A stretch of 38,464 nucleotides of DNA from assembly GCA_025464915.1 (NCBI GenBank), contig JAODNF010000311.1, positions 1 to 38,464 on the forward strand, written 5' to 3'. Position numbers and translations under genes: made by a program. The notes beneath the pieces are model-generated. The model was not told where the DNA came from. It was given only the letters and a program-made list of their open reading frames with translations, and ran no database searches. The stretch comes from Frankiales bacterium. Lineage in GTDB: Bacteria > Actinomycetota > Actinomycetes > Mycobacteriales > SCTD01. This document shows positions 29,616 through 32,073 of the stretch, piece by piece. The number at the start of each line of letters is the position of its first letter. Position 1 is the first letter of the stretch.

Positions 29616-29954
29616 TCAACGGCCGAGTCGCTCGCGGATGAGGAACTTCGGCACGCACATCGCCCACGCCTCGGTCACCCGCTCCTGCATCTCGTCCAGG
29701 TCCAGCTCGCCGATGCGGCAGGCGACCCACTGGTACCTCATGTCCGACGCGCCGGGCAGCAGGTAGCGGTCGTCGGACGCGACAAGGGCCGTCCGTTCCT
29801 CGCGCGGGAAGGCGAAGCCCATCAGCGTCTCGTCGCGACTGAAGGCGCAGTAGACGATCGACGTGACGCGGAACTTCACGCGGTCGTGGATGAGGTGCTC
29901 GGTGGTGCGGGGCAGCGTCAGCGCCAGCTTGCGCACGTCCTCGACGGTGGCCAC
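29616..29954 (-). CDS. MmcQ/YjbR-family DNA-binding protein
   Basis: ATVEDVRKLALTLPRTTE...DRVKFRV...EAWAMCVPK. In-frame GTG 29954 (alternative 29960); the ORF-track extension to 30053 is unlikely. Confidence 0.82.
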   Translation of the reverse strand: MATVEDVRKLALTLPRTTEHLIHDRVKFRVTSIVYCAFSRDETLMGFAFPREERTALVASDDRYLLPGASDMRYQWVACRIGELDLDEMQERVTEAWAMCVPKFLIRERLGR

Positions 29955-30029
29955 GCCCACATATTCGCTGGACTCACCGACAACCGCCAGGCATCCTGAC
30001 CGGCTCAGCACCGAGGAAGGACCGACCGC

Positions 30030-30077
30030 GTGACACGCAGACGAGATCAGCACCTACGGGTGCCCGTCCTGCGCTGA
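30030..30077 (+). CDS. Candidate leader peptide MTRRRDQHLRVPVLR
   Basis: GAGGAAGG SD upstream; candidate promoter TGGACT-N17-CATCCT (29969-29997); rare codons ACA/AGA/CGA/CTA; overlaps alternative hairpins. Confidence 0.5.
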   Translation: MTRRRDQHLRVPVLR

Positions 30078-30118
30078 TCGCGGGGTCACCCGGGCGCCCC
30101 GACCTACCGGAGAGCCCC

Positions 30119-31126
30119 GTGGACACCATCCTGGGACAGTTCGACCTGTCCGACCTGCACAACGACCTCGGTCCCTACCTGTACTTCCGCGCGCACGAGC
30201 GCCGCGGCGACGCGCACCTCGTGAAGCGCGACCTCAAGCACGCCGTCACGCGCGACGTGCTGCCCGACCGGGCCGTCCTCGTCCGGACCGTCGACAACGG
30301 TCCCTGCGTCGACGTGCTCGCCGAGGTGGACGACACCGTCGTGCTGCTCCGCACCTGGAAGCAGGCGGCCGACGTCTGGGTCACGGCTCACGACGAGCCC
30401 ACCGCCCGGGCCGTCGCCTCGGAGATCGAGGCGCGCGCCTTCAAGCAGCCGGCGCAGGGCCGCATCGAGCTGCGGTTCACCTCCGACGACAGCAGCACCC
30501 GGTACGTCGAGGTGGACGTGCCCACGTGGACCCAGGTCGAGGGCCACTACAGCCCGGCCGTGCACACCGCGCTGAACGGCCTCGTCGCGCACCGGCACTC
30601 GACGGCAGAGGCCCGTCGCCTGATGCTCTGGCACGGCGAGCCGGGTACGGGGAAGACGACCGCCATCCGGGCGCTCCTGCACGCGTGGCAGGAGTGGACC
30701 GAGGCGGTGGTCGTCACCGACCCCGAGTCGCTGCTCTCGAGCGGCAAGTACCTGCGCCGCGTGATGCTCGACGCCAACGACGACCACAAGTGGCAGGTGG
30801 TCGTCCTCGAGGACGCCGAGTCCCTGCTCCACAAGACCGGCGGCAAGGGGATGGCGAAGCTGCTGAACCTGTGCGACGGCCTGCTCGGGCAGGGCCTGCG
30901 CTGCCTGTTCCTCATCACCACCAACGAGCCGCTGCAGGCCGTGCACCCGGCGCTCGTCCGCCCCGGACGCTGCCTGTCGCGCGTCGAGTTCGACCGGCTC
31001 CCCGCCAGCCAGGCTGCCGGCCTGCTGGGCCGTCCCGTCGACCGCGGCATGACGCTCGCCGAGGTGATGGCGGCCAAGCCGGTGACGGTCGTGCAGGAGC
31101 CGGTCGCGGTGGGTCAGTACCTGTAG
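30119..31126 (+). CDS. AAA-family ATPase (DUF5925-like)
   Basis: RLMLWHGEPGTGKT Walker A, VVVLEDAE Walker B, LLNLCDGLLGQG, ITTN sensor 1, RPGRC arginine finger; GGAG SD. Confidence 0.85.
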   Translation: MDTILGQFDLSDLHNDLGPYLYFRAHERRGDAHLVKRDLKHAVTRDVLPDRAVLVRTVDNGPCVDVLAEVDDTVVLLRTWKQAADVWVTAHDEPTARAVASEIEARAFKQPAQGRIELRFTSDDSSTRYVEVDVPTWTQVEGHYSPAVHTALNGLVAHRHSTAEARRLMLWHGEPGTGKTTAIRALLHAWQEWTEAVVVTDPESLLSSGKYLRRVMLDANDDHKWQVVVLEDAESLLHKTGGKGMAKLLNLCDGLLGQGLRCLFLITTNEPLQAVHPALVRPGRCLSRVEFDRLPASQAAGLLGRPVDRGMTLAEVMAAKPVTVVQEPVAVGQYL

Positions 31127-32073
31127 AACCGCTGCACGTCGGCCCACTCCCGCTCGAGTCCCTTCGTCACCGCCGCGCTCAGCGGGGCGAAGGGCTCGAG
31201 CGCTCCGGACGACACGGTCCAGGTGGCGACGGCCCTGCCCCTGACCAGTGCGATCGGCTTGAAGATGCCGTTGACCGTGATGACGCCCTCGGCACCTGCC
31301 ATCACCCAGTCGCGGGAGTCCCAGCCGCAGAGCAGCTCGTCCCAGGGACCGAGCAGCGTGGGCCCGGGCACGGTCGCCTCGTACGCCGGAGCCTCGCGTC
31401 CCTGGAGGGCGGCGCGGGCGTCGCGCAGGGTCAGCCCGGCCCACTTCGCGAGGTCGCGGTCGGTCGAGGGGCCGTGGCCGGCGAGATAGCGGGTGCCGAG
31501 CTCCTGGAGCGCCGTCTCGCGCGACACCCTCGGCTGCTTGCCGAGCCAGTCGGCGACGAGCACGAAGGCCTGCTCCCGGCCGACCATCGGCCCACGCACG
31601 CAGATGCCTGCCAGCGTCGCCTTGAGGAGCAGGTGCACGATCGCCTGCCCCGCGACCGGGACGCCCTTGCGCTCCAGGGCGTCCTTGAGCTGCGTGCGGG
31701 TCGCCGGCCCGTCTTTCAGCACCCTCGTGATGATCGGCAGCGCCTTGTCGGCCTGGCCGGTCGAGACGCCCTCCTGCCGCAGCCGCGTCGCGTTGCTCGT
31801 CACGAGCTGGGGCGTGGTCAGCGCGTGCAGCCAGGCGTAGTCCTCCGACCGGATCAGGTGCAGCGTCCCGCGGTTCACCCAGGTGACGACCGCGGCGCGT
31901 GAGGCGAGGGCCTCGTCCACGTCGTCGACGGTCAGCCCGGTGCTGCGAGCTCGCACCCCGAGCTGGCCGGCCCGCAGCTCCTGGCACTGGACAGCGAGGC
32001 AGCGGTCGAGCACGCCGAGGACGGAAGTCGCCTTCGGGCCCGCGAGCAACTGGGCCGCGAGCCGTGGGATCAC
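31114..32073 (-). CDS. AlkZ-like (HTH_42) winged-helix DNA glycosylase
   Basis: AVQCQE (QxQ motif), NRGTLHL, RYLAGHGPST..DLAKWAGL, LLGPWDE motifs. Confidence 0.85.
   Translation of the reverse strand: MIPRLAAQLLAGPKATSVLGVLDRCLAVQCQELRAGQLGVRARSTGLTVDDVDEALASRAAVVTWVNRGTLHLIRSEDYAWLHALTTPQLVTSNATRLRQEGVSTGQADKALPIITRVLKDGPATRTQLKDALERKGVPVAGQAIVHLLLKATLAGICVRGPMVGREQAFVLVADWLGKQPRVSRETALQELGTRYLAGHGPSTDRDLAKWAGLTLRDARAALQGREAPAYEATVPGPTLLGPWDELLCGWDSRDWVMAGAEGVITVNGIFKPIALVRGRAVATWTVSSGALEPFAPLSAAVTKGLEREWADVQRFYRY

Follow-up and report, generated by a model that had tools for sequence, protein, structure and literature searches.

A conserved leader with a short upstream reading frame and alternative hairpins precedes a DUF5925-AAA ATPase gene in Actinomycetota: a candidate translational attenuator

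The leader and its conservation

The window, a 38,464-nucleotide (nt) stretch of high-GC actinobacterial DNA (contig JAODNF010000311.1), contains the open reading frame (ORF) of a 335-residue ATPase and a divergently oriented YjbR-family gene, and the intergenic region of ~164 bp between them is the subject of this report. This region has a Shine-Dalgarno (SD) sequence, a 15-codon upstream ORF (uORF) and four segments that could pair with each other in the RNA, the last being the ribosome-binding site (RBS) of the ATPase gene (Table 1). Segments 2 and 3 can form a hairpin, designated the anti-sequestor, around the uORF stop codon, and segment 3 can alternatively pair with segment 4. Comparison of homologous sequences provides good support for this leader as a real, conserved and previously undescribed element with the anatomy listed.

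Table 1. Features of the ATPase leader and its flanking genes, in window coordinates
Feature	Position	Strand	Details
YjbR-family gene, divergent, upstream	29616..29954	-	Pfam YjbR 1.1e-7, from residue 45 of the longest ORF (29616-30053)
Promoter-like pair	29969..29997	+	-35-like TGGACT (29969-29974), 17-nt spacer, -10-like CATCCT (29992-29997); sequence reading
uORF SD, GAGGAAGG	30013..30020	+	9 nt 5′ of the uORF GTG
uORF, 15 codons	30030..30077	+	GTG start, TGA stop (30075-30077); counterpart at 20/21 homologous loci
Segment 1	30024..30054	+	uORF start and 5′ half, including GCACC (30050-54); pairs with segment 2 in the minimum-energy fold
Segment 2	30058..30073	+	Last six uORF codons; anti-sequestor 5′ arm, outer GGGTGCCCG (30058-66), inner TCCTGCG
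Apical loop of the anti-sequestor hairpin	30074..30078	+	Holds the uORF stop codon
Segment 3	30079..30101	+	Anti-sequestor 3′ arm (30079-85 and 30091-99); 30089-30101 alternatively pairs with segment 4
Segment 4, ATPase RBS	30108..30122	+	SD GGAGAG (30109-14), GTG (30119-21); paired with segment 3 in the minimum-energy fold
DUF5925 and AAA ATPase, 335 residues, Bcs1/YjoB-like predicted fold	30119..31126	+	Pfam, profiles, Foldseek

The layout of SD, uORF and hairpin is found at 20 of 21 distinct loci with ATPases of at least 41% identity (19 of 20 public loci), and across several actinobacterial families. One of the 20, L134, comes from an unpublished genome (G300) and is used in this tally only; most of the leader statistics given below rest on the 19 public leaders, 14 of which make up clade A. 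The tally leaves out many metagenome homologues of the ATPase that are 47-89% identical. When the same criteria were applied throughout (SD of 5 nt or longer, and a hairpin with 10 or more pairs across the uORF stop codon), 17 of the 19 leaders passed versus 2 of 23 regions upstream of more distant homologues. One of those two, L023 (from a Geodermatophilus metagenome-assembled genome, MAG), and a near miss, L030 (Patulibacter brassicae), have uORFs of 10 and 12 codons, respectively, that encode Arg-Arg early on and stop within or next to a hairpin loop and, with their ATPase starts uncertain, may be distant versions of the same leader architecture. Searches of three further families added only L159 (G810:C53, 41% identity), for which the ~130 nt upstream of the ATPase start that were examined contain no hairpin layout; there, an ORF of 25 codons lacks a clear SD and has a stop that overlaps the ATPase start as ATGA. 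Conserved uORFs and covarying stems, for which the initial annotation of this DNA had proposed a search, are therefore present upstream of homologues, the covariation being that of the hairpin formed by segments 2 and 3.

The genes that flank the ATPase differ from locus to locus, those upstream being unrelated, and the leader therefore travels with the ATPase. A covariance model of the hairpin region, designated R1, identifies one copy in the genome from which the window derives. In 78 genomes of the same family, R1 has nine strong matches (E ≤ 3e-10) that are exactly the nine ATPase-bearing genomes, and each match is located directly 5′ of the ATPase gene. Of eight weak matches (E 4e-4 to 9e-3), seven look like noise in or beside unrelated genes. 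The eighth, L154 (G488:C24, leader near 1501-1579 of the locus, minus strand), has kept the SD, a 15-codon uORF and the hairpin before an ATPase remnant in which only residues 4-28 and 277-335 are alignable, consistent with an internal deletion or an assembly artefact. No Rfam 15 family matches positions 29955-30125, even at E ≤ 10. A metagenome scan with peptide patterns (generic AAA motifs) returned, as its best 80 loci, ATPases of at most 45% identity, none with the leader.

The SD and the 15-codon ORF are positioned as in the initial annotation, and both are conserved. The same selection rule was applied to each leader, taking the ORF of 8-22 codons that has the best SD and a stop 15-70 nt 5′ of the ATPase start. 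At every one of the 20 loci where identity is at least 43% and the upstream DNA is intact, this gave an SD-led uORF of 11-17 codons that ends 36-54 nt 5′ of the ATPase start. Every leader has an SD-like run of 5-7 nt, 5-9 nt 5′ of an ATG, GTG or TTG uORF start, and both elements stay while the sequence around them drifts. The uORF is 11, 14, 15, 16 or 17 codons long, always with the frame kept to a stop in or beside the hairpin loop, a pattern common to three clades between which the leaders cannot be aligned. In L004, L013, L015 and L140, the opening M-P-A-R-L survives synonymous changes (GCA/GCT, CGG/CGC/CGA and CTG/CTC). On this comparative evidence, we infer that the uORF is translated.

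Were the ORF incidental to GC-rich sequence, the hairpin could be a 5′-untranslated region (5′-UTR) element that acts without being read by ribosomes, as an mRNA-stabilizing stem or as a binding site for a protein or small RNA. Open frames are common, the other frames being open across the same span in 29 of 38 cases, and the peptide is not conserved across clades. There is also a precedent in the actinobacterial LEU element of leuA, in which, according to Seliverstov et al. 2005 (PMC1262725), a leader ORF is present yet classical attenuation was judged unlikely and a regulatory protein was proposed. Such an element is nonetheless improbable here, given a strong SD at canonical spacing and a start that are kept in every leader amid diverging sequence, a frame kept through length changes, a start motif kept through synonymous changes and a stop placed in the loop in three sequence-unrelated clades. 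It is highly improbable that the uORF encodes a micropeptide with a function of its own, acting for instance as partner or substrate of the ATPase, and that the hairpins only tune its synthesis. The uORF does strictly co-occur with the ATPase, and early Arg-Arg or Arg-Leu pairs recur in several clades, but the 11-17 residues include no family-wide conserved sequence and the C-terminus is dictated by the RNA arm. In clade A that C-terminus is P-V-P-(V/A)-(L/P)-R and, as the same codons form the arm, this is no evidence for a functional peptide.

A promoter-like pair, TGGACT-N17-CATCCT, had been noted upstream of the uORF. Both hexamers are present and align in 19 of 19 leaders as a TSGAC / (TG)nCAYCCT-like pair, in which the A of the -10 element is invariant and the T nearly so, but a generic sigma-70 scan of the locus identified no sites. 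In L015, L137, L138 and L140, the -10 region (alignment A6, columns ~36-50) is TGGCAC-N5-TGC-like and resembles the sigma-54 -24/-12 consensus. An extended -10 element seems more likely in these four cases, as other leaders have TGnCAYCCT at the same place. The distant homologue L019, which lacks a uORF, has a -10-like hexamer, CACCCT, 6 nt before the ATPase ATG and, as this hexamer directly precedes the start codon, the L019 sequence suggests a leaderless message transcribed from a related promoter. On the other strand, the YjbR gene most likely starts at the GTG at 29954, as judged from the position of the Pfam domain and from the syntenic locus L003, where the corresponding codon is ATG, and the intergenic region is accordingly given as 29955-30118. 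The longest YjbR ORF, with its start at 30053, would overlap the uORF.

Alternative pairings in the leader RNA

The window leader folds with a predicted energy of -58.2 kcal/mol (z = -3.19 versus 200 dinucleotide shuffles). The best-supported helix is that between segments 2 and 3 (helix 2:3), in which GGGTGCCCG (30058-66) pairs with CGGGCGCCC (30091-99), an interaction originally proposed only as the alternative. Whole-leader alignment by MAFFT misaligned clades B and C, and column statistics were therefore calculated for clade A alone (14 leaders, model-based alignment A5), with an alignment that leans towards helix 2:3. In this alignment, 89.3% of the helix 2:3 cells are paired, versus 35-58% when the partner is slid, and there are 12 double-sided changes, versus 4.5 ± 2.1 in shuffles (0/500), with four compensatory pairs. 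RNAalifold recovers the core of helix 2:3 independently. When the 3′ arm was shuffled, the mean z was -2.3, with 18 of 19 leaders below -1, and native arms outperformed swapped arms both across all leaders (0/10000 swaps as good) and within clade A (20/10000). A hairpin of at least 10 pairs spanning the uORF stop is present in 17 of the 19 leaders; clades B and C form the same hairpin from different sequence, and the stop is located in the loop in three clades unrelated in sequence.

A strong GC-rich hairpin immediately after a leader ORF is also the classical arrangement for transcriptional attenuation, in which helix 2:3, or the C-rich, G-poor stretch 3′ of it, would stop RNA polymerase by intrinsic or Rho-dependent termination unless prevented by a ribosome on the uORF. 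Rho-dependent control has been suggested for mycobacterial cys leaders (PMC1262725). There is, however, no U-run 3′ of the hairpin, and a terminator scan of 29800-30300 identified no terminator-like sites, so that an intrinsic terminator was rejected. The C-rich stretch extends for merely about 10-20 nt, and the conserved complementarity of segment 3 to the ATPase SD and start argues for control of initiation. Attenuation of transcription thus has a slim chance of being the correct explanation.

The ATPase start was first thought to be masked by pairing of CGCGGGGT (30079-86) with GCCCCGTG (30114-21). Both stretches are present, but the helix in the minimum-energy fold is a different one, helix 3:4, in which 30089-30101 pairs with 30108-30122 and so covers both the SD and the GTG of the ATPase. 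The core of helix 3:4 is paired in 79.8% of cells, versus 25-46% with the partner slid, and hardly varies. Evaluated without an alignment, 16 of 19 leaders have 10-15 of the 17 RBS nucleotides in pairs. Native duplexes of segments 3 and 4 have an energy of -19.3 kcal/mol versus -16.2 kcal/mol for swapped partners (0/10000 for all leaders, 6/10000 for clade A), and the partner-swap controls 2:4, 1:4 and upstream:3 are flat. Helices 2:3 and 3:4 share nucleotides in 17 of 19 leaders, at least four in 16 of these 19, and have predicted stabilities of -20 to -34 and -12 to -26 kcal/mol, respectively.

Helix 1:2 is present in most clade-A minimum-energy folds, and the local hairpin of the CACC/GGUG type is paired in 78.6% of cells, versus 21-41% slid; the partner-swap test gave 113/10000 in clade A. 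The complementary stretches GATCAGC (30045-51) and GCTGATC (30073-79), recorded earlier as a stem, are present at these positions. The inequality E12+E34 < E23 < E34, which holds in 18 of 19 leaders, was given no weight, as the window sizes alone would yield it.

A proposed switch and its candidate signal

With a probability of about 0.55, we consider positions 29969-30122 to be the promoter and leader of a two-cistron message in which stalling of a ribosome early in the uORF turns on the ATPase through a four-segment RNA switch. The first cistron would be the 15-codon leader ORF and the second the Bcs1/YjoB-like AAA ATPase. In ribosome-free RNA, helices 1:2 and 3:4 would both form, hiding the ATPase start (OFF). 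A ribosome at the uORF stop, which lies in the loop between segments 2 and 3, would cover segment 2 and ~12 nt beyond but spare the core of segment 3, leaving this free to hold segment 4 (OFF). Were the ribosome instead delayed within the first half of the uORF (P-site at roughly codons 3-6), it would cover segment 1 and so free segment 2; the stronger 2:3 hairpin would then form, segment 4 would be released and the ATPase would be translated (ON). Leaders that lack helix 1:2 would function as three-segment switches, with the same predicted effect of an early stall, since running ribosomes would repress and early stalls relieve. The core of this proposal, a translated leader ORF with mutually exclusive structures one of which hides the ATPase RBS, was put forward in the initial annotation and is backed by conservation and covariation. 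As for its direction and signal, we infer that an early stall leads to ON and that the signal is slow or arrested translation of the uORF.

The behaviour expected of the RNA when a ribosome masks part of it is reproduced in part by folding. With the ribosome at codon 4, helix 2:3 is in the minimum-energy fold of about 11 of the 19 leaders, by our own reading of the folds. The predicted opening of the RBS is modest, and the equilibrium ribosome-mask scan was not counted as support for the switch. In the window, the unpaired fraction of the RBS rises from 0.37 to 0.45; the largest increase is from 0.15 to 0.51 (L015), and there is no change in L016, L017, L135 and L136. One reason for the modest opening is that, in the predicted folds, the far 5′ end pairs with the ATPase RBS.

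These small changes weigh against the proposed switch, as do several features of the leaders themselves. There are just 19 public leader sequences, several of them from close relatives. With other frames so often open, an open frame alone is weak evidence of translation. The uORF peptide differs between clades, with those of clades B and C ending differently from that of clade A, and in clade A the RNA arm formed by the last codons can account for the conserved C-terminus. In clade B (L132 and L133) the RBS is barely paired (5/17 nucleotides), and column covariation is not significant for helix 3:4 (49/500). Nor is it for helix 1:2, which is the weakest helix (mean z -0.8, with 9/19 leaders below -1), with L002, L018 and clades B and C lacking it or forming it only weakly. 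The partner-swap control 1:3 also scored 29/10000 across all 19 leaders, from which it follows that the all-clade swap values are inflated by differences in composition between clades.

The same parts could operate by a reversed or termination-centred logic, in which the ribosome matters at the end of the uORF, where it breaks helix 2:3. Helix 3:4 might then form, so that ATPase synthesis falls as translation of, or dwell time on, the uORF increases; alternatively, the ribosome might also cover the first nucleotides of segment 3 and expose the start, resulting in positive coupling. The quantity sensed would be the speed of termination or of late elongation, at a UGA that is usually followed by C and preceded by a Pro-rich tail. 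Consistent with this, 17 of 19 leaders have the stop within or next to the loop, 13 of the 14 clade-A leaders end in CGC/CGG-TGA, and in several leaders the 5′ arm of helix 3:4 begins 3-7 nt past the stop, within the footprint of a terminating ribosome. Helix 1:2, needed for a stable OFF state in the classical model, is also weak or absent in several leaders. Pure positive coupling, however, leaves the best-supported helix, 2:3, without a role, and base pairing accounts for the conserved C-terminal codons. L017 and L131 have TAA or TAG as the stop, and the end of the peptide varies by clade, both of which make a specific termination-arrest peptide unlikely. Overall, we regard a switch governed from the end of the uORF as rather unlikely, and retain early stalling as the preferred mechanism.

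Early stalling requires a cause, and the initial annotation pointed to the R/K-x-R/K macrolide arrest motif. This motif is present in only 2 of 19 public leaders (those of the window and L140), as well as in the leader of the degraded copy L154, and macrolide-type arrest is therefore not a family trait. The feature that does recur is Arg at positions 2-6 of the uORF, often as Arg-Arg or Arg-Leu. The remark that rare codons are present in the window uORF extends to the family, with rare A-ending codons, CGA and AGA among them, enriched in the uORF 5′ halves, although other explanations are possible. In these 5′ halves, A is the third base in 37 of 111 codons, versus 6 of 152 in ATPase codons 2-9, and CGA plus AGA account for 16 of 27 Arg codons, versus 41 of 589 in the ATPase genes; both counts are uncorrected for relatedness of the leaders. 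The GC content of third codon positions is 0.61 in the 5′ halves of the 19 uORFs, versus 0.91 in the ATPase genes and 0.84 in ATPase codons 2-9, and versus a GC content of 0.76 in the non-coding spacer. The rare Leu codon CTA also recurs in the 5′ halves. The excess of A-ending codons could, alternatively, keep the uORF start unstructured. Candidate causes of a stall are thus the rare A-ending codons including CGA/AGA, an early Arg-Arg or Arg-Leu pair, or a drug.

By analogy with known stalling leaders, the ATPase may be induced by translation stress. A more specific idea, to which we assign low odds, is that the leader responds not to a single drug but to decoding failure in general, as a sensor dedicated to it. 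Ribosomes would pause at the rare A-ending codons, above all CGA and AGA for Arg, and at the early Arg-Arg or Arg-Leu pair, perhaps through shortage, damage or undermodification of the cognate tRNAs, and this would switch on a Bcs1/YjoB-like unfoldase for stalled or damaged translation machinery or its products. If correct, such a sensor and unfoldase would constitute a previously unrecognized bacterial stress module.

The regulated ATPase and known systems

The protein encoded downstream is, as first labelled, a DUF5925-like AAA ATPase, with both Pfam domains above their curated cut-offs (AAA, PF00004, 9.5e-13, 49.2 bits versus 21.2; DUF5925, PF19347, 6.6e-8, 32.7 bits versus 27). Its C-terminal half belongs in the classical AAA clade, with the D-domains of p97/Cdc48/AFG2 as the best profile matches. 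In Foldseek searches with a structure model of mean predicted local distance difference test score 80.9, the best whole-length matches are Bcs1 (E = 4.7e-12) and YjoB (5.2e-9), with 324-393 aligned columns, template modelling scores of 0.41-0.53 and identities of 13-17% (structures 8tby, 8tp1 and 7w42). The model thus predicts a Bcs1/YjoB-like fold, and sequence profiles give no link between the N-domain and Bcs1/YjoB. Naming of the ATPase by NCBIfam or by PADLOC (defence systems) was rejected, as the matches were sub-threshold and to the P-loop alone.

The DUF5925-AAA family is large, with 3197 proteins at E ≤ 1e-10 among 8000 candidates scored. Of 41 relatives, 10 encode the ATPase (E ≤ 0.001), and only four genomes of the genus have close copies. 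It is present in 9 of the 78 family genomes, in 8 of 401 drawn from the order, all eight in the family of the window, and in 8 of 401 drawn from the class. When a single genome of each species was scanned, further copies came from MAGs labelled Streptomyces, Mycobacteriales, Kineosporiaceae, Frankiaceae and Actinomycetota. Such a patchy distribution suggests an accessory, possibly mobile, stress function.

Genes for RNA or alkylation repair are neighbours of the ATPase in several independent contexts; the remaining loci have unrelated neighbours. An RtcB RNA ligase gene is located downstream on the same strand in L017 (2608-3921, plus strand), and a gene with a Hen1 RNA-repair domain is divergent from the ATPase in L140 (2908-3990, plus strand). 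Among alkylation-repair functions, an AlkZ-like glycosylase is encoded nearby in the window (31114-32073, minus strand) and in L003 (371-1498), and an Ada-AlkA and a ResIII helicase in L132 (3252-4004) and L133 (6-1265). As a clue to function, this neighbourhood is a lead only; if the leader does sense decoding failure, these genes would fit a role in nucleic-acid damage and translation quality control.

A full-text literature search for 'DUF5925' returned no paper, and, among the papers listed by a search on leader-peptide attenuation and ribosome stalling, none deals with this system by title and the start of the abstract; ATPases are not mentioned in the accessible part of PMC4833913. A leader that senses ribosomes would indicate when the cell wants the ATPase, most likely when ribosomes falter on a short test ORF, and so would provide a first testable clue to the role of an uncharacterized DUF5925-AAA enzyme. 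The leader also adds a structured family from high-GC Actinomycetota that Rfam does not hold, and is an unusually clean natural case in that three clades unrelated in sequence share one geometry and all place the uORF stop in the anti-sequestor loop.

Judged by its sequence organization, this element most likely belongs with the leader-peptide translational attenuators, having a four-segment layout in the style of ermC and trp that acts on translation initiation. Leaders of the ermC, cat and cmlA type are translational attenuators of antibiotic-resistance genes. As in the ermC type, there is a short SD-led leader ORF, helices 1:2 and 3:4 compete with 2:3, segment 4 contains the SD and start of the regulated gene, and a ribosome arrested early in the leader is here also proposed to free the downstream start. 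In contrast to the ermC type, the regulated gene encodes a Bcs1/YjoB-like AAA ATPase rather than a known resistance determinant, the leader ORF includes segment 2 and has its stop in the 2:3 loop, none of the known arrest motifs is conserved (a +x+ motif is present in 2 of 19 leaders), and there is neither sequence similarity nor an Rfam family.

In the available text of Seliverstov et al. 2005 (PMC1262725), trp, ilvB, leuS, cys and leuA leaders are described in Actinobacteria, and the leader reported here is not among them. The trp, ilvB and leuS attenuators and the LEU element share with it a leader ORF followed by alternative hairpins in high-GC actinobacteria and, as in the LEU element, the SD of the regulated gene takes part in a stem. 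As in trp, segment 2 would be blocked by a ribosome that has reached the leader stop, but here there is no U-run terminator, and one to three Arg codons take the place of a run of codons for one amino acid. The regulated gene is also, unlike those of trp, leuS and LEU, not one for amino-acid biosynthesis or a tRNA synthetase.

In secM-secA and mifM-yidC2, the upstream ORFs are long and have defined arrest sequences, with release by the activity of the regulated protein. The proposed mechanism resembles these in that a ribosome stalled on the upstream ORF would remodel a hairpin hiding the downstream SD, and differs in that the ORF has 11-17 codons and no conserved arrest sequence. The ATPase, for its part, resembles the mitochondrial AAA translocase Bcs1 and YjoB of Bacillus subtilis in its whole-length predicted fold and classical-clade AAA domain, and differs from both in having the Pfam DUF5925 domain at its N-terminus.

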